A DNA stretch of 64,000 nt. Source: Escherichia coli. GTDB taxonomy: Bacteria; Pseudomonadota; Gammaproteobacteria; Enterobacterales; Enterobacteriaceae. Under the pieces are notes generated by a model. That model saw only the letters and a list, made by a program, of their open reading frames with translations. It ran no database searches and was not told the origin of the DNA. Below, one piece after another: positions 13,166-29,344 of the stretch. Each line of letters begins with the position of its first letter. Positions within the stretch are counted from its first letter, which is position 1. The stretch lies in assembly GCF_044324875.1 (NCBI RefSeq), contig NZ_CP172185.1. One strand, written 5' to 3'. A program made the translations under genes and the position numbers.

Positions 13166-14185
13166 ATGACCGTACGCGTAGCGATAAATGGCTTCGGTCG
13201 CATCGGGCGTAATGTGGTTCGTGCCTTGTATGAATCCGGACGCCGGGCGGAAATTACCGTGGTGGCAATCAACGAACTGGCGGATGCTGCGGGCATGGCG
13301 CATTTGTTGAAATATGACACCAGCCATGGCCGTTTTGCATGGGAAGTACGACAGGAACGCGATCAACTTTTTGTTGGTGATGACGCCATCCGCGTATTGC
13401 ATGAACGTTCACTGCAATCGCTCCCCTGGCGTGAACTTGGCGTTGATGTAGTCCTCGACTGCACCGGCGTATATGGCTCCCGCGAGCATGGCGAAGCGCA
13501 TATTGCCGCCGGGGCCAAAAAAGTGCTCTTTTCACATCCTGGCAGTAACGATCTCGACGCGACCGTTGTTTACGGCGTCAATCAGGATCAACTTCGTGCG
13601 GAACACCGCATCGTTTCTAACGCTTCCTGTACCACGAATTGCATAATTCCCGTCATCAAATTGTTAGATGATGCGTACGGTATTGAGTCCGGCACTGTGA
13701 CCACAATTCACTCCGCCATGCACGATCAACAGGTTATTGATGCATACCATCCTGACCTGCGTCGCACTCGGGCAGCCAGCCAGTCGATCATTCCGGTCGA
13801 TACTAAACTGGCCGCCGGTATCACACGATTTTTTCCGCAATTTAACGATCGCTTTGAAGCGATTGCGGTACGTGTGCCAACCATAAATGTGACGGCAATC
13901 GATTTAAGCGTGACGGTGAAGAAACCTGTAAAAGCCAATGAAGTCAACCTGTTGCTGCAAAAAGCAGCACAAGGTGCATTTCATGGTATAGTTGACTATA
14001 CGGAATTGCCGTTGGTCTCTGTAGATTTTAACCACGATCCGCACAGTGCCATTGTCGATGGCACCCAAACCCGGGTCAGTGGCGCACACCTGATCAAAAC
14101 GTTGGTCTGGTGCGATAACGAATGGGGCTTTGCTAACCGAATGCTCGACACGACGTTAGCTATGGCTACTGTTGCTTTCAGGTAA
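13166..14185 (+). CDS. epd: D-erythrose-4-phosphate dehydrogenase
   Basis: 339 aa starting [15 protein letters not shown]; GAPDH-family with active-site SCTTNC. Confidence 0.95.
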
Positions 14186-14234
14186 GACGCAAGCAGCGTC
14201 TGCAAAACTTTTAGAATCAACGAGAGGATTCACC

Positions 14235-15398
14235 ATGTCTGTAATTAAGATGACCGATCTGGATCTTGCTGGGAAACGTGTATTTATCCGTGCGGATCTG
14301 AACGTACCAGTAAAAGACGGGAAAGTAACCAGCGACGCGCGTATCCGTGCTTCTCTGCCGACCATCGAACTGGCCCTGAAACAAGGCGCAAAAGTGATGG
14401 TAACTTCCCACCTGGGTCGTCCTACCGAAGGCGAGTACAACGAAGAATTCTCTCTGCTGCCGGTTGTTAACTATCTGAAAGACAAACTGTCTAACCCGGT
14501 TCGTCTGGTTAAAGATTACCTCGACGGCGTTGACGTTGCTGAAGGTGAACTGGTTGTTCTGGAAAACGTTCGCTTCAACAAAGGCGAGAAGAAAGACGAC
14601 GAAACCCTGTCCAAAAAATACGCTGCACTGTGTGACGTGTTCGTAATGGACGCATTCGGTACTGCTCACCGCGCGCAGGCTTCTACTCACGGTATCGGTA
14701 AATTCGCTGACGTTGCGTGCGCAGGCCCGCTGCTGGCAGCTGAACTGGACGCGCTGGGTAAAGCACTGAAAGAACCTGCTCGCCCGATGGTGGCTATCGT
14801 TGGTGGTTCTAAAGTATCTACCAAACTGACCGTTCTGGACTCCCTGTCTAAAATCGCTGACCAGCTGATTGTTGGTGGTGGTATCGCTAACACCTTTATC
14901 GCGGCACAAGGCCACGATGTGGGTAAATCCCTGTACGAAGCTGACCTGGTTGACGAAGCTAAACGTCTGCTGACCACCTGCAACATCCCGGTTCCGTCTG
15001 ATGTTCGCGTAGCAACCGAGTTCTCTGAAACTGCACCGGCTACCCTGAAATCTGTTAACGATGTGAAAGCTGACGAGCAGATCCTGGATATCGGTGATGC
15101 TTCCGCTCAGGAACTGGCTGAAATCCTGAAGAATGCGAAAACCATTCTGTGGAACGGTCCGGTTGGCGTGTTCGAATTCCCGAACTTCCGCAAAGGTACT
15201 GAAATCGTGGCTAACGCTATCGCAGACAGCGAAGCGTTCTCCATCGCTGGCGGCGGCGACACTCTGGCAGCAATCGACCTGTTCGGCATTGCTGACAAAA
15301 TCTCCTACATCTCCACTGGCGGCGGTGCATTCCTCGAATTCGTGGAAGGTAAAGTACTGCCTGCAGTAGCGATGCTCGAAGAGCGCGCTAAGAAGTAA
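14235..15398 (+). CDS. pgk: Phosphoglycerate kinase
   Basis: 387 aa starting [25 protein letters not shown]. Confidence 0.97.
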
Positions 15399-15406
15399 AA
15401 AAATCA

Positions 15407-15433
15407 CAGGGCAGGGAAACCTGCCCTTGTTGC
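15407..15433 (+). terminator. Putative pgk terminator hairpin
   Basis: cagggcagg-gaaa-cctgccctt hairpin just after the pgk stop; weak T tract. Confidence 0.4.
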
Positions 15434-15462
15434 AGCGCGCTTTTAAAGCACGCACTTTTTCA

Positions 15463-15592
15463 TACTCTAAATAATTCGAGTTGCAGGAAGGCGACAAGAG
15501 AGTGAATCCCATGAGCTTACATAAGTAAGTGACTGAGGTGAGCGAACGCAGACGCAGCACATGCAACTTGAAGTATGACGAGTATAAGGCCC
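15463..15592. repeat. ERIC (IRU) element in the pgk–fbaA intergenic region
   Basis: Contains the ERIC core gtgaatccc..gagcttacataagtaagtgactg.ggtgagcg; near-identical inverted copy at 28519–28645. Confidence 0.85.
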
Positions 15593-15612
15593 GACGATAC
15601 AGGACAAGAGAC

Positions 15613-16692
15613 ATGTCTAAGATTTTTGATTTCGTAAAACCTGGCGTAATCACTGGTGATGACGTACAGAAAGTTTTCCAGGTAGCAAAAGAAAACAACT
15701 TCGCACTGCCAGCAGTAAACTGCGTCGGTACTGACTCCATCAACGCCGTGCTGGAAACCGCTGCTAAAGTTAAAGCGCCGGTTATCGTTCAGTTCTCCAA
15801 CGGTGGTGCTTCCTTTATCGCTGGTAAAGGCGTGAAATCTGACGTTCCGCAGGGTGCTGCTATCCTGGGCGCGATCTCTGGTGCGCATCACGTTCACCAG
15901 ATGGCTGAACATTATGGTGTTCCGGTTATCCTGCACACCGACCACTGCGCGAAGAAACTGCTGCCGTGGATCGACGGTCTGCTGGACGCGGGTGAAAAAC
16001 ACTTCGCTGCTACCGGTAAGCCGCTGTTCTCTTCTCACATGATCGACCTGTCTGAAGAATCTCTGCAAGAGAACATCGAAATCTGCTCTAAATACCTGGA
16101 GCGCATGTCCAAAATCGGCATGACTCTGGAAATCGAACTGGGTTGCACCGGTGGTGAAGAAGACGGCGTGGACAACAGCCACATGGACGCTTCTGCACTG
16201 TACACCCAGCCGGAAGACGTTGATTATGCGTATACCGAGCTGAGCAAAATCAGCCCGCGTTTCACCATCGCTGCCTCCTTCGGTAACGTACACGGTGTTT
16301 ACAAGCCGGGTAACGTTGTTCTGACTCCGACCATCCTGCGCGACTCTCAGGAATATGTTTCTAAGAAACACAACCTGCCGCACAACAGCCTGAACTTCGT
16401 ATTCCACGGTGGTTCCGGTTCTACTGCTCAGGAAATCAAAGACTCCGTAAGCTACGGCGTAGTGAAAATGAACATCGATACCGATACCCAATGGGCAACC
16501 TGGGAAGGCGTTCTGAACTACTACAAAGCAAACGAAGCTTATCTGCAGGGTCAGCTGGGTAACCCGAAAGGCGAAGATCAGCCGAACAAGAAATATTACG
16601 ATCCGCGCGTATGGCTGCGTGCCGGTCAGACTTCGATGATCGCTCGTCTGGAAAAAGCATTCCAGGAACTGAACGCGATCGACGTTCTGTAA
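15613..16692 (+). CDS. fbaA: Fructose-bisphosphate aldolase class II
   Basis: 359 aa starting MSKIFDFVKPGV; the longer ORF in the track is an in-frame read-through of the ERIC element. Confidence 0.97.
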   Translation: MSKIFDFVKPGVITGDDVQKVFQVAKENNFALPAVNCVGTDSINAVLETAAKVKAPVIVQFSNGGASFIAGKGVKSDVPQGAAILGAISGAHHVHQMAEHYGVPVILHTDHCAKKLLPWIDGLLDAGEKHFAATGKPLFSSHMIDLSEESLQENIEICSKYLERMSKIGMTLEIELGCTGGEEDGVDNSHMDASALYTQPEDVDYAYTELSKISPRFTIAASFGNVHGVYKPGNVVLTPTILRDSQEYVSKKHNLPHNSLNFVFHGGSGSTAQEIKDSVSYGVVKMNIDTDTQWATWEGVLNYYKANEAYLQGQLGNPKGEDQPNKKYYDPRVWLRAGQTSMIARLEKAFQELNAIDVL

Positions 16693-16758: not shown

Positions 16759-16858
16759 CTGATGCGCTACGCTTATCAGGCCTACACGTATCCTGCAATA
16801 TATTGAATTCGCAGGTTTTTGTAGGCCGGATAAGGCGTTCACGCCGCATCCGGCATGA
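16759..16858. repeat. REP/BIME cluster (two REP units in opposite orientation)
   Basis: gcctgatgcgctacgcttatcaggcctac and gtaggccggataaggcgttcacgccgcatccggca. Confidence 0.8.
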
Positions 16859-17049
16859 CAAAGCGCACATTGATATCTGTCTGAGCCCCGCTCTGCGGGG
16901 ATTTTTTCGCCAAAAGCAAGGTGATGCAGATGAGAAATCTGTGATCTATTTGGCAAAATTATGCTTTATTGTTTACCCTTGTCAGACTGCCCGTCATAAG
17001 GCGGCGGAGTGTATTTCTCCATTTTGAGTCAGTTGAAAAGGAATATTGA

Positions 17050-17925
<876 letters not shown>

Positions 17926-17966
17926 TCATGTAAAGCGCCCATGAAGTTCATGGGCGCACTACCAAT

Positions 17967-19010
17967 TTAACGCATTGTTTCATCGAGTATATTGGCAACT
18001 TTTTGCATGACTTCCCCGGCTTTCTCCACGCCTTCCTTATTTTGCTTTTCTACCCACTGTGCTTGTTCTTGCTGATAACCGATCGCTTTCTGCCAGGCGT
18101 CCAGCCCTGATTTTTTCAGATAGCGAACCTGTGCACCTTCCTGCTCAAGCGTTTTTACCATGCTGATCAGGTTGTTATCTAATGCCTTGCCCAGTGCTTT
18201 CTCGGTTGTAATGGCAGCTCGTTGAATAGCCTCACGATCTCTGTTATCAAGGTTTTCCCACGATTGTTTATTCATTACCAACAGATAAACATGACCAAGC
18301 CAGAGAGAAGGTGAGAGCAACACATTCGGCGCAGCACGTTCAGCATGGATGTCATATCCGCTATCGAGATTGACCATTAAACCATCCAGTTTTCCATCCA
18401 TGAGTGCTTTAGTTATTTGATCATTCCACGGTAAAGTTACGGTTTTTGCCCCCGTATGAGTTAAATAAGCCCGATGCCAGAAACTGGCTGTTCGCCAGGT
18501 GGTTCCCTGAAGCGCAGTCAATTTATCAATGGGCCTGGTAGAGAAAAAGCCTACCGGGTAGCCAAGGAAAAACTGTAAATTCACGATATTGTTACGCTCA
18601 AGTTCAGCGTTAAATTCGGGAATTTCCGCATATACGCGACGAAAGAATTCTACCTGACTGGCTCCATGATCCGGGCCAATAGCAAAGCTCTTGAAGATTT
18701 GATGAAGCGGCAATTGTTTCGCGGTGTATTCCGGCACCACTATACCCATATCAGCTTTGCTGCCATCGCTTATTGTCGTCAGAGCGTCATAGCTGATGGC
18801 GGTTTCACCGTTCCAGTGTGGTTCGATTTTCAAACGCCCCTGCGACTCTTTTTCAATTTCTGCAAAAAATATCTCTTTAATTATTTGTGTACGCATTCCC
18901 CCGTAGGGTTCATGGTCTGTATAACGAAGAATTTTTTCAGCAGCAAAAATCGAGGGAGATAACAGAAGAAATCCTGATAAAAGAAAGGGGAGTAATTGTC
19001 GGTAGTGCAT
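17967..19010 (-). CDS. Orphan TRAP-type (DctP-like) periplasmic solute-binding protein, apparently accessory
   Basis: 347 aa; signal peptide MHYRQLLPFLLSGFLLLSPSIFAAEK; DctP-like motifs (HVYLLVMNKQSWENL, LDGLMVNL); AAGGAA ribosome-binding site; no DctQ/DctM permease genes nearby. Confidence 0.65.
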   Translation of the reverse strand: MHYRQLLPFLLSGFLLLSPSIFAAEKILRYTDHEPYGGMRTQIIKEIFFAEIEKESQGRLKIEPHWNGETAISYDALTTISDGSKADMGIVVPEYTAKQLPLHQIFKSFAIGPDHGASQVEFFRRVYAEIPEFNAELERNNIVNLQFFLGYPVGFFSTRPIDKLTALQGTTWRTASFWHRAYLTHTGAKTVTLPWNDQITKALMDGKLDGLMVNLDSGYDIHAERAAPNVLLSPSLWLGHVYLLVMNKQSWENLDNRDREAIQRAAITTEKALGKALDNNLISMVKTLEQEGAQVRYLKKSGLDAWQKAIGYQQEQAQWVEKQNKEGVEKAGEVMQKVANILDETMR

Positions 19011-19125
19011 ATCTGTTCCTTCAGTTTATTAATTCAACTTATACTATATTAATTTTATCAATTATCCCTAATGTTATTCCTGCGCTATAGTCTGCGCATC
19101 AGATAATTAGCCCGGAATTAATTAC

Positions 19126-19760
19126 GTGATATCTTATTACTTTCAAGGTCTTGCACTTGGGGCGGCTATGATCCTACCGCTCGGTCCACAAAATGCTTTT
19201 GTGATGAATCAGGGCATACGTCGTCAGTACCACATTATGATTGCCTTACTTTGTGCTATCAGCGATTTGGTCCTGATTTGCGCCGGGATTTTTGGTGGCA
19301 GTGCGTTATTGATGCAGTCGCCGTGGTTGCTGGCGCTGGTCACCTGGGGCGGCGTAGCCTTCTTGCTGTGGTATGGTTTTGGCGCTTTTAAAACAGCATG
19401 AGCAGTAATATTGAGTTAGCCAGCGCCGAAGTCATGAAGCAAGGCAGATGGAAAATTATCGCCACCATGTTGGCAGTGACCTGGCTGAATCCGCATGTTT
19501 ACCTCGATACTTTTGTTGTTCTGGGCAGCCTTGGCGGGCAACTTGATGTGGAACCAAAACGTTGGTTTGCGCTCGGGACAATTAGCGCTTCTTTCCTGTG
19601 GTTCTTTGGTCTGGCTCTTCTCGCTGCCTGGCTGGCACCGCGTCTGCGCACGGCAAAAGCACAGCGCATTATCAATCTGGTTGTGGGATGTGTTATGTGG
19701 TTTATTGCCTTGCAGCTGGCGAGAGACGGTATTGCTCATGCACAAGCCTTGTTCAGTTAG
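19126..19760 (+). pseudogene. argO: Arginine exporter ArgO (LysE family) split by a 1-nt frameshift
   Basis: Two ORFs (91 aa and 120 aa) that concatenate to the 211-aa ArgO sequence; frame switches at the overlapping ATGA at 19398–19401. Confidence 0.7.
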
Positions 19761-20760: not shown

Positions 20761-21657
20761 ATGGACATTTTTATTTCGAAAAAGATGCGCAATTTCATTT
20801 TATTAGCGCAAACCAATAATATTGCCCGGGCGGCAGAAAAAATCCATATGACGGCTTCGCCATTTGGCAAAAGCATTGCCGCGCTGGAAGAACAAATTGG
20901 CTATACGCTATTTACCCGCAAAGATAATAATATCAGCCTCAATAAAGCCGGGCAGGAACTGTATCAAAAACTGTTCCCGGTTTATCAACGACTTTCTGCG
21001 ATTGATAATGAAATCCATAACTCAGGACGTCGTTCACGAGAAATTGTGATAGGCATAGATAATACTTATCCGACCATTATTTTTGATCAGTTGATTAGTC
21101 TCGGAGATAAGTACGAAGGCGTGACCGCCCAGCCAGTTGAGTTCAGCGAAAACGGCGTTATCGATAATCTTTTTGACCGTCAGTTAGATTTTATTATCTC
21201 CCCACAGCATGTATCTGCACGAGTTCAGGAACTGGAAAATCTGACTATCAGTGAACTACCACCGCTGCGATTGGGCTTTCTCGTTTCTCGCCGTTATGAA
21301 GAGCGTCAAGAGCAAGAGCTGCTTCAGGAGCTGCCCTGGCTACAAATGCGCTTTCAGAACCGGGCCAACTTCGAAGCAATGATTGATGCGAATATGCGAC
21401 CTTGTGGGATCAATCCAACCATTATTTATCGTCCCTACAGTTTTATGGCCAAAATCAGCGCCGTGGAGCGCGGACATTTTCTGACGGTGATCCCGCATTT
21501 TGCCTGGCGACTGGTGAATCCGGCAACGCTGAAATATTTTGATGCACCGCACAGGCCGATGTATATGCAGGAATATCTTTATTCAATCAGAAATCATCGT
21601 TATACCGCCACGATGCTTCAGCATATTGCTGAAGATCGTGACGGGACGAGTCATTAA
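20761..21657 (+). CDS. ygfI: LysR-family transcriptional regulator
   Basis: 298 aa; N-terminal helix-turn-helix; position matches ygfI; 3' end overlaps the convergent scpC by 4 nt. Confidence 0.85.
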   Translation: MDIFISKKMRNFILLAQTNNIARAAEKIHMTASPFGKSIAALEEQIGYTLFTRKDNNISLNKAGQELYQKLFPVYQRLSAIDNEIHNSGRRSREIVIGIDNTYPTIIFDQLISLGDKYEGVTAQPVEFSENGVIDNLFDRQLDFIISPQHVSARVQELENLTISELPPLRLGFLVSRRYEERQEQELLQELPWLQMRFQNRANFEAMIDANMRPCGINPTIIYRPYSFMAKISAVERGHFLTVIPHFAWRLVNPATLKYFDAPHRPMYMQEYLYSIRNHRYTATMLQHIAEDRDGTSH

Positions 21658-23132
21658 CCCAGCATCGAGCCGGTTGCAATTAAATTACGGTGTAAATCGA
21701 AGACGTGGCTAAGATCGTGGTGAATATGTCCGCCGGGCGCATTTTCCAGATAGCGATGCAGATAATCCCGATACATAGGATGTGCACAATTATCAATGAT
21801 AGTGCGGGCGCGTTGAAGCGGGGAAAGACCACGCAGATCGGCGATCCCTTGTTCGGTGATGATCACTTTGACGCTGTGTTCGCTGTGATCAACATGGCTG
21901 CACATTGGCACGACGGTTGAGATCTTGCCTTCTTTAGCAATCGACGGGGCCATAAAGATCGACAGATACGCGTTGCGTTCAAAATCGCCGCTGCCACCGA
22001 TGCCGTTCATCAGATCGACCCCGGCTACGTGCGTTGAGTTGGCATGCCCGTAAATATCAAACTCCAGGCCGACGTTCAGAGCGATGACGCCCAGACGACG
22101 GATGATTTCCGGGTTATTGGAAATCTCCTGCGGACGCAACACAATGCGGCTGGCAAAGTAATCCATATTGTCGTAAATCTTGCGCAGGGAATCGGCCGAG
22201 ATAGTCAGGCTGGAGGCGCTGGCCCCGCTGATTTTGCCCGTTTCCAGTAAATGCACCACCGATTCCTGTAGCACTTCCGAATACATCATAAACGGAGGAA
22301 TTTCCGGATTTTCCCCCAGACGCGCCATTACCGCATTATTGATGTTGCCCACGCCACTTTGCAGCGGCAGAAATTCCGGCGGAATACGCCCATGCGCCAT
22401 TTCCTGCAACAAGAACGTGACCACGTTATCGGCAATCTGCTGGCACATGGGATTTTGCTTATCCAGCATATTACCGGCGTCGGGCAAGTTGGTTTCCACG
22501 ACGGCGACAATCTTTTTCGGATCGATTTGCACATAGCGGGTACCGACGCGATCCATTGCATGGAAGATCGACACGCTATTGCGCCGCGGTGGCGCGCCAG
22601 GAATCACAATATCTGCCAGTTCTGCAACGCGCGGATCGTGATAGTGATTGAGTTCAATGATCACTTTCTTCGCCCGCAGCAGCCAGGTCGGCGCATTACC
22701 GATCCCGCTGGTTAACCAGACTCGACCATCCGGTGCCAGTGCCGATGCTTCAATGACGGCAACATCAATTTCGCCGAAGAAACCGTAATTGACCATTTGC
22801 GCCACTTCGCTCAAATGCAGGTCAACGAAACTCACCGCGCCCTGATTGATCTTTTTACGTAAACCGGACGATGTTTGATATGGCGCACGCTAGGAAACAG
22901 CATCGGCGTCAGAAAGTACATCGTCAGCGGCGGCGCTGATTGACGCCCCCGTCAGCAGGCGAATTTGATACGGCTTTTTGGCCTCATGCTGTTCGTTAGC
23001 TCTGCGGGCAATCGCGGTGGGTAAGGCTTTCGGCGAACCCGCTGGGGTAAAGCCGCTAAATGCCACCATGTCGTTATGCTGGATAATTTCTGCCGCTTCA
23101 TCGGCGGTCATCCTTGTCCACTGAGTTTCCAT
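21654..23132 (-). pseudogene. scpC: Propionyl-CoA:succinate CoA-transferase interrupted by an in-frame amber codon
   Basis: N-terminal 80 codons (METQWTRMTADEAAEIIQ...DADAVS) end at TAG (minus strand, 22890–22892); the same frame continues with the rest of ScpC; the full span is 492 codons. Confidence 0.75.
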
Positions 23133-27286: not shown

Positions 27287-28180
27287 TTAATCCTGACGAA
27301 GGACTTTGTGACCATAATCGAGCAACGCATCAGTGACTTTACGCATCATGCGGCTTTCAGGAGCAAAGCGGTGCCAGTAGAGCATCCGGCGTTGAAATAG
27401 CCCTGGCGTTAAGTCAATCAGTTCACCGCTGGCCAGTTCTTTCTCGATTTGCAGGTGCGGGATCATACAGCAGGTGGTGCCCTGGCGAGCAAGTTGCACG
27501 AACGCTTCTGAAGAATTAACGATATGGCACGGTACGCTGCCTGGGGGCAGATCGAAGTTTTGCTGCAAAAAGGCCTGGTGCATATCGTCAAGATGGTCAA
27601 AGGCGACCACAGGTGCTTTCAGTAATGCCGAACGCGTTACGCCGTTAGGGAAATATTTTTCGGCAAACGGTTTTGAGCTGACGAACAGATAGTCGAGCGC
27701 ACCGAGCTTATCGACAAGACAGCTCGGCAGCGCCTGATGTTGAATACTCACCGCGCCGACCACTTCGCCGCGGCGCAGGCGTTCCTGAGTGCGGGTTTCA
27801 TCTTCTACCTGCAAGTTGAGGCGGATAGGCGAATCAGCCAATACAGGAGCCAGCGCCGGAAGCAACCACGTCGCCAGACTGTCGGCGTTGACCGCCAGTG
27901 AAAGCAGCAGCGGAGTCGAACCGGTTTGTTCATCGCCCAGCCACTCTTCTTCCAGCAACTCCACCTGGCGCAGCAGTGCCAGCAGTTTTTGCCCTTGTTC
28001 TGTCGGGCGCGGTGGTACGGTACGCACCAACAGCGGCTGCCCGAACATATTTTCCAGTTGCTTAATGCGTTGTGAGACGGCTGATTGTGTAATGCACAGC
28101 TTTTGTGCCGCGCGCTCAAATCCTCGTTCACGTATCACCGCATCCAGTGCCTGTAATGTTCTGTAGTCCGGGCGTTTCAT
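27287..28180 (-). CDS. argP: LysR-family regulator ArgP (IciA)
   Basis: 297 aa starting [43 protein letters not shown]. Confidence 0.95.
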
Positions 28181-28518
28181 TGCTGTTGTCTGCTCCTGGT
28201 AAATGCTTTTTCCTGCACTATGACACAATTTTGTGTCAGGTTGCATATACCGAAGCCGTCGGTGGGTAACATTTGTATCAATGGTTAAACGCGCAGCTTA
28301 AAAGATCAGGGATTTGCGCTATTGCATTTCGCTTAGCGACTTCGCGCCCTGGTTATGTTGAATGGCGTGGCGTTATTGCCTCTGATCGCACCGTGGAGCG
28401 GCATACCCAGACCGTTATATGCTTTATTTGCCGGGCGAAAGGGGATGCCTGCCATTGCGCGATATTTTATGGATGAGTTAACCACGCGGCTTGCCAACGG
28501 GGTCTGAATCGCTTTTTT

Positions 28519-28645
28519 GTATATACTCGTCATACTTCAAGTTGCATGTGCTGCGTCTGCGTTCGCTCACCCCAGTCACTTACTTCTGTAAGCTCCTGGG
28601 GATTCACTCTCTTGTCGCCTTCCTGCAACTCGAATTATTTAGAGT
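28519..28645. repeat. ERIC (IRU) element in the argP–rpiA intergenic region
   Basis: Reverse-complement copy of the element at 15463–15592, with a few mismatches. Confidence 0.85.
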
Positions 28646-28684
28646 ATAATGCGTGTGAAATTTCATACCACAGGCGAAACGATC

Positions 28685-29344
28685 ATGACGCAGGATGAAT
28701 TGAAAAAAGCAGTAGGATGGGCGGCACTTCAGTATGTTCAGCCCGGCACCATTGTTGGTGTAGGTACAGGTTCCACCGCCGCACACTTTATTGACGCGCT
28801 CGGCACGATGAAAGGCCAGATTGAAGGGGCCGTTTCCAGTTCAGATGCTTCCACTGAAAAACTGAAAAGCCTCGGCATTCACGTTTTTGATCTCAACGAA
28901 GTCGACAGCCTTGGCATCTACGTTGATGGCGCAGATGAAATCAACGGCCACATGCAAATGATTAAAGGCGGCGGCGCGGCGCTGACCCGTGAAAAAATCA
29001 TTGCTTCGGTTGCAGAAAAATTTATCTGTATTGCCGACGCCTCCAAGCAGGTTGATATTCTGGGCAAATTCCCGCTGCCAGTAGAAGTTATCCCGATGGC
29101 ACGTAGTGCAGTGGCGCGCCAGCTGGTGAAACTGGGCGGTCGTCCGGAATACCGCCAGGGCGTGGTGACCGATAACGGCAACGTGATCCTCGACGTCCAC
29201 GGCATGGAAATCCTTGACCCGATAGCGATGGAAAACGCCATAAATGCGATTCCTGGCGTGGTGACTGTTGGCTTGTTTGCTAACCGTGGCGCGGACGTTG
29301 CGCTGATTGGCACACCTGACGGTGTCAAAACCATTGTGAAATGA
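28685..29344 (+). CDS. rpiA: Ribose-5-phosphate isomerase A
   Basis: 219 aa starting [31 protein letters not shown]. Confidence 0.97.

Follow-up and report, generated by a model that had tools for sequence, protein, structure and literature searches.

Two ERIC Repeats in Opposite Orientation

The stretch of Escherichia coli chromosomal DNA that we analyzed (64 kb of contig NZ_CP172185.1; referred to as the window in the following) carries two copies of a short repeat in opposite orientation. Copy A (125 nt; positions 15462-15586, plus strand) occupies the spacer between pgk, its upstream partner (14172-15398, plus strand, as the listed open reading frame; the annotated gene encodes 387 aa), and fbaA, whose true coding sequence spans positions 15613-16692 of the plus strand (359 aa). 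Copy B (28522-28647, or to 28648 when its terminal A is counted; minus strand; 126-127 nt) is positioned in the spacer between argP (27287-28180, minus strand) and the divergently oriented rpiA gene (28685-29344, plus strand; 219 aa); it ends 37 nt upstream of the rpiA start codon, and serA is the next gene. The two copies are 12,935 nt apart, and the genes mscS, argO, yggE, srsR/ygfI, scpC, scpB, meaB/argK, scpA, and argP lie between them. The original prediction had placed the repeats in the pgk-fbaA and argP-rpiA spacers, with the segment from mscS to argP in between; these assignments agree with the RefSeq annotation of near-identical E. coli records.

A repeat search of the window returned two pairs of inverted arms, 15462-15510/28599-28647 (49 nt, 100% identity) and 15508-15586/28522-28600 (79 nt, 96% identity). 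Pairwise alignment joins them into a similarity that extends over the full length of the element, about 126 nt, so that the near-identical inverted pair originally predicted was correctly recognized, with limits that were a few bases off. The alignment consists of exact blocks of 49, 9, 13, and 50 nt, and the two copies differ by three substitutions and one single-base indel, a deletion in copy A (97% identity overall). No chance matches were obtained in dinucleotide-shuffled sequence, and neither the repeat search nor the primer-site search uncovered a third ERIC copy elsewhere in the 64-kb window.

Both repeats are ERIC elements (also termed IRU), that is, imperfect palindromes of about 127 bp that belong to a non-autonomous, MITE-like repeat family of the Enterobacteriaceae. 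Knowledge of ERIC repeats dates back to 1990-91, and they underlie ERIC-PCR typing; the reports on them are said to include those of Sharples and Lloyd from 1990, of Hulton and colleagues from 1991, and of Wilson and Sharp from 2006. The window thus holds two members of a long-known repeat family, and the novelty of the elements as such is low. We know of no transposase for ERIC.

The identification made in the original prediction is borne out by the primer sites, the length of the copies, their hairpins, and a TA/TATA duplication at copy B. The ERIC2 primer used in ERIC-PCR matches copy B without any mismatch and copy A with one, and the ERIC1R site contains one mismatch in copy B; in copy A, this site has one mismatch and additionally lacks 1 nt, and an ungapped search missed it there (primer sequences from PMC3696847). 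Copy A is predicted to fold into a hairpin of -37.2 kcal/mol (z = -4.5) and copy B into one of -37.8 kcal/mol (z = -4.8); in neither case was any of 200 shuffled sequences as stable. The core of copy B resembles the consensus, and its termini, TATACTC...GAGTATA, are terminal inverted repeats that end in TA, and terminal inverted repeats, target-site duplications, and 5'-TA-3' termini are listed as traits of ERIC (PMC2229807, Table 1; PMC3184786). The copies further share with ERIC/IRU elements the size of approximately 126 nt, the imperfect palindrome, the conserved central core with the ERIC1R and ERIC2 sites, the duplication of a TA target, and an intergenic position in or beside transcription units, as well as the occurrence in both orientations, at strain-variable loci, and in longer forms with internal inserts of about 70 nt. 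Nothing essential sets them apart from the family; the argP-rpiA locus is empty in strains K-12 and O157.

In megablast searches with queries containing the element, the median number of places hit in an E. coli genome was 5-6, and a copy in the ybhI-ybhJ spacer of strain ATCC 25922 is 98.4% identical to copy B. Finding this element elsewhere in E. coli genomes upholds its identification as ERIC. To our knowledge, Rfam contains no ERIC family. The two copies score 41.4 and 36.0 bits against the Rfam model V_AS5 (RF02818), below its gathering score of 96, and are consequently not members of this family; these sub-threshold alignments span the full model (positions 1-129) in both cases. This suggests that the Vibrio antisense RNA AS5 may derive from an ERIC-like repeat or may be a distant relative of one. 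We also considered copies A and B as small RNA genes and rejected this reading, as sub-threshold matches to V_AS5 were all that Rfam returned.

Copy A in the pgk-fbaA Spacer

An 851-nt stretch around copy A is 100% identical to the corresponding region of strain AR_0013. When used as a query, it was covered to at least 80% in 5,422 of 5,426 complete E. coli genomes, and of the 5,425 genomes that gave any match, 5,422 have pgk, ERIC, and fbaA in one contiguous stretch. On this distribution, copy A is to be regarded as old and as essentially fixed in the species. A typical E. coli copy A, such as that of strains E69 and CFSAN018748, differs from copy B at 1-2 nt. The copy present in the window carries in its central core a 1-nt deletion (CCCC to CCC) and two private substitutions (G to T and G to A); these changes, which weaken the central stem, are common to AR_0013 and several O6:H16 ETEC strains (100% identity).

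The pgk-fbaA spacer comprises 214 nt both in K-12 and here, and in K-12 no start of transcription was detected within it (PMC2759082). Hence, fbaA is read from the epd-pgk-fbaA operon's upstream promoters (PMC2759082), and copy A sits inside a co-transcribed spacer. It would consequently be transcribed and fold as a hairpin within the epd-pgk-fbaA mRNA. This hairpin is kept when the whole spacer is folded. A second, G+C-rich hairpin located just 3' of the pgk stop codon (15408-15427, plus strand) is conserved across Enterobacteriaceae and is separate from the ERIC element.

What copy A might do in this transcript can be judged by analogy. According to reviews, Yersinia ERIC elements that are co-transcribed with their flanking genes alter the stability of the upstream mRNA in an orientation-dependent manner via an RNase E site (De Gregorio, 2005, as cited in PMC2229807, PMC3184786, and PMC10969869). 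Copy A resembles these Yersinia elements in its placement between two co-transcribed genes. It would most likely be either a tolerated passenger or, by this analogy, a modest, orientation-dependent modulator of segmental mRNA stability or processing involving RNase E.

The spacers of other species bear on the question whether copy A is retained in the pgk-fbaA transcript under functional constraint. We scanned species-representative genomes with a degenerate pattern of the fbaA start, which yielded at least 120 loci. About 100 informative Enterobacterales among the loci listed possess spacers of 53-170 nt without an ERIC element, including Escherichia whittamii and most Citrobacter, Enterobacter, and Klebsiella species. 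The spacers of E. whittamii and of a record labelled E. coli SCPM-O-B-8794 resemble empty sites; they are compatible with a TA insertion of copy A, with junctions that have since mutated. ERIC-like elements that match the E. coli copy in position and orientation are present in Citrobacter sp. FP75, in Entomohabitans teleogrylli (as a long form), in two Raoultella species, in one metagenome-assembled genome, and in Yersinia aldovae, and remnants were found in E. albertii (with an internal deletion) and in Enterobacter sp. Bisph1. These elements share only some 76-80% identity with that of E. coli. They may represent either several independent insertions at a favored site or an ancient element that was lost many times.

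We regard functional retention of copy A as unlikely. Its fixation in E. coli, the recurrence of ERIC-like elements, identically placed and oriented, in the spacers of several other genera, and the orientation-dependent mRNA effects that reviews attribute to Yersinia ERIC elements all speak for it. Against it stand the roughly 100 out of about 110 informative Enterobacterales species, among the loci listed, that lack the element, and the fact that E. albertii and Enterobacter sp. Bisph1 hold only decayed remnants. Furthermore, the deletion and the two substitutions have deprived the copy in the window of part of its central stem, a pattern of decay rather than of constraint. Together, the decay of the window's copy and the two remnants would favor weak or no constraint.

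Copy B at the Putative rpiA Promoter

Comparison of filled and empty alleles defines the position of copy B to the base. The empty allele reads ...CGCTTTTTTTGTA-TATA-ATGCG... (GTA-TATA-ATGCG), and the filled allele reads GTA-TATA-CTCGTC...TTAGAG-TATA-ATGCG; the difference between them is exactly the element plus one TATA, and both site and orientation are constant in all carriers examined. The insertion point is situated inside GTATATAATG. The left copy of the duplicated target (TATA, with TA as the minimal target) lies at 28522-28525 and is defined by the comparison of the two alleles, and the right copy at 28645-28648 makes up the first four bases of a TATAAT hexamer (28645-28650, plus strand) that is found 34 nt upstream of the rpiA start codon at 28685 in filled and empty alleles alike. 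This hexamer is the putative -10 box of rpiA. The 5' end of the rpiA transcript is presumably located about 34 nt upstream of the ATG.

These junctions lend themselves to a simple insertion model. The element would have entered the TA in GTATATAATG directly upstream of rpiA and duplicated TA/TATA. Through this duplication the TATAAT box is regenerated, and it is consequently intact in both alleles. The upstream -35 and T-rich region would have been pushed 123 bp away, with an ERIC terminus taking its place. Strict sigma-70 and terminator scans of the surroundings of both elements and of the K-12 empty allele detected no promoter in either allele and are uninformative as to the effect of copy B on rpiA; by manual comparison, the best -35 match amounts to 2-3 out of 6 positions in both alleles. 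The arrangement is reminiscent of the Correia/NEMIS elements of Neisseria, MITEs that bring along or change promoters, as copy B, like many of them, is a MITE at a core-promoter TA that replaces the sequence upstream of the -10 region. It differs from them in belonging to another repeat family and in having a terminus for which promoter activity is neither known nor predicted (best -35 match of 3/6). The copy B allele would offer a natural experiment on the effect of a MITE insertion on a housekeeping gene of the pentose-phosphate pathway.

The remainder of the argP-rpiA spacer is itself variable. What is left of a LysR-type pseudogene lies at positions 28247-28521, with an annotation that varies between a LysR substrate-binding domain protein and a hypothetical protein, and a 45-bp indel polymorphism and a T-run of variable length (6-8 T) are present beside the ERIC insertion point.

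Copy B is infrequent. We used a 246-nt query that consisted of the element and 60-nt flanks and scored a site as filled when the query was covered in one piece; by this measure, copy B exists in 66 (1.2%) of the 5,426 complete E. coli genomes. The carriers comprise porcine ETEC O139:H1, the EPEC O127:H6 strain E2348/69, and isolates from humans, dogs, cattle, and birds. AR_0013 is identical to the window around copy A, yet its B site is empty, as is that of Ecol_316. Judged by this survey, copy B is to be classed as a rare insertion polymorphism. Strain-variable ERIC loci are on record for E. coli, with 14 additional ones outside K-12 (Wilson and Sharp, 2006, as cited in PMC10969869).

The site also varies in structure. 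Strain 06-00048 carries a 71-nt internal insert in its copy B, and E2348/69 and its relatives carry two inserts, of 79 nt and 71 nt, in mirror-image positions; three small hairpins make up each insert. In 611 of the 5,426 genomes, a single occurrence of the 71-nt insert was detected, for example at another locus in O157:H7. Long ERIC forms have reportedly been described by Sharp in 1997 and by Wilson and Sharp in 2006.

Across the carrier lineages, copy B shows 0-1 differences in 125 nt. The left flank differs at several positions, although the 45-bp indel in this flank inflates the comparison, which we therefore use in a qualitative manner. A nearly invariant element on diverged flanks could reflect recent or recurrent insertion, gene conversion, or constraint, and a single old neutral insertion would not easily fit this pattern. 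A direct derivation of copy B from copy A was also considered and rejected, as the donor cannot be named: the typical E. coli copy A (1-2 nt) and the ybhI-ybhJ copy (within 2 nt) are both close to it.

It is the TA/TATA duplication, and this feature only, from which copy B is called an insertion; precise excision or TATA slippage could equally account for the two alleles. The empty argP-rpiA site might accordingly be the derived state, with an ancestral copy B lost by precise excision in about 99% of the lineages. TATA direct repeats around a long palindrome are a classic substrate for slippage deletion, the carriers are dispersed among strains that are not related to each other (pig ETEC O139:H1, EPEC E2348/69, human and dog isolates), and three structural forms exist at this one site. 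However, very many independent precise losses would be needed. Moreover, the near-identity of copy B across its carriers and to other E. coli copies (within 1-2 nt) suggests that it is young, and AR_0013 and Ecol_316, which are close to the window haplotype, are empty. We therefore consider a general loss of an ancestral copy B improbable and retain the reading of copy B as a rare insertion.

A further reading, which we also consider improbable, is that ERIC is still mobile in E. coli, or has been until recently, and does not choose its targets at random. It is prompted by the near-identical copies at the same rpiA TA in the same orientation on diverged flanks, taken together with the ERIC-like elements that at least five genera carry, at one spot and in one orientation, in the pgk-fbaA spacer. 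If it were true, it would call for a trans-acting transposase that has so far escaped identification and that prefers particular target structures and orientations, or for selection of a function at the RNA level in these transcripts of central metabolism. The presence/absence and size polymorphism of site B and the occupancy of the pgk-fbaA spacer both bear on the issue of ERIC mobility versus selective retention. A rare and structurally variable ERIC allele on the putative rpiA promoter, along with the finding that other genera, too, repeatedly hold such an element in the pgk-fbaA spacer, is the mildly new aspect of our analysis.

The Inverted Arrangement, Apparent Reading-Frame Extensions, and Neighboring Sequences

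The best explanation overall, and one that we hold with considerable confidence, is that the window contains two ERIC elements, that copy A is of old standing and most likely either passive or modestly active on its mRNA, that copy B is a rare insertion, and that their inverted arrangement is incidental. The original prediction had put forward that the pair could mediate inversion of the intervening segment, and the copies might indeed act as substrates of homologous recombination that inverts the 13-kb segment from fbaA and mscS to argP. They are inverted with respect to each other, share exact tracts of 49 and 50 nt, and in strain CFSAN018748 are 98% identical over 126 nt. Exact tracts of 49-50 nt exceed the minimal processing segment for RecA-dependent recombination. 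We built the junction predicted for such an inversion (the pgk side, ERIC, and the reverse complement of the argP side) and searched for it in complete E. coli genomes. This pgk-ERIC-argP junction was present in 0 of 5,426 genomes, a search with power only in the 66 genomes in which both copies are present; the query was covered to at most 59%, a portion accounted for by native pgk-ERIC sequence. Both native junctions are preserved, with argP, ERIC, and rpiA contiguous in 66 of 66 copy B carriers and pgk, ERIC, and fbaA contiguous in nearly all genomes, as given above. An inversion would place argP under read-through from pgk and would deprive fbaA of the epd/pgk promoters, the only ones known for it (PMC2759082), so that counter-selection would be expected. 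The suggestion thus found no support, and we consider such a role of the pair very unlikely. Rare or transient inversions may still be compatible with the data from 66 genomes. The inverted arrangement is incidental, and two exact tracts of about 50 nt are all that it offers to homologous recombination.

Copy A had also been thought to provide fbaA with an N-terminal extension. The reading frame exists in the mechanical sense: the ORF finder reports the fbaA frame as 15529-16692, opening at a GTG inside copy A, and the 28 codons from this GTG to the ATG at 15613 (15529-15612, plus strand) are open and in frame. As a biological extension it is spurious. The first residue of the E. coli FbaA chains in the PDB corresponds to residue 29 (359-aa form) or 30 (358-aa form) of the extended frame, with the N-termini MSKIFDF and SKIFDF; the RefSeq annotation likewise gives FbaA as a protein of 359 aa. 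An AGGA motif lies 8 nt before the ATG at 15613, and no Shine-Dalgarno sequence precedes the GTG at 15529, which is placed within the stem of the ERIC hairpin. Finally, orthologues in about 100 Enterobacterales species without ERIC start, among the loci listed, at the same ATG. Despite the 28 open codons, genuine translation of FbaA from the GTG is therefore contradicted by structures, annotation, the missing ribosome-binding motif, and ERIC-free orthologues alike, and we deem it extremely improbable; the extension is mechanical, not biological. The mechanical rpiA frame opens at an ATG at 28649, inside the TATAAT box and 12 codons upstream of the start at 28685, and this extension is mechanical as well. 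For annotation, this means that ORF finders lengthen fbaA (from the GTG at 15529) and rpiA (from the ATG at 28649) into or up to the repeat.

Several further features of the region deserve mention. Just 3' of fbaA, positions 16778-16820 (minus strand) match the Rfam family ES036/CssrF with 42.5 bits (gathering score 37.6), and positions 16824-16859 (plus strand) give a sub-threshold match to naRNA4/CssrE. These matches at 16778-16859 are probably palindromic units of the REP/BIME type in the fbaA-mscS spacer.

The mscS-argO spacer (17926-19125) measures 1.2 kb in the window versus 139 nt in CFSAN018748. It contains an ORF of 347 aa (17967-19010, minus strand) with a DctP domain (TRAP-type solute-binding protein; Pfam E = 2e-17), a strain-variable orphan that accounts for an inter-ERIC distance about 1.24 kb longer in the window than in other strains (CFSAN018748, AR_0013). 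An IS element had been considered as the cause of this 1.24-kb excess and was rejected, since the gene for the DctP-family solute-binding protein was found there.

Two of the genes located between the copies are split. argO (19126-19760) falls into two ORFs, with a 1-nt deletion near position 19398 relative to CFSAN018748, and scpC (21654-23132) falls into ORFs of 393 and 80 aa without an indel, presumably through a nonsense substitution. The split argO and scpC reading frames reflect either gene decay in this strain or errors of sequencing. Outside the inter-ERIC segment, a 43-nt direct repeat (56540-56582/58471-58513; 77% identity, 1,931 nt apart) may be due to chance or to two related genes.
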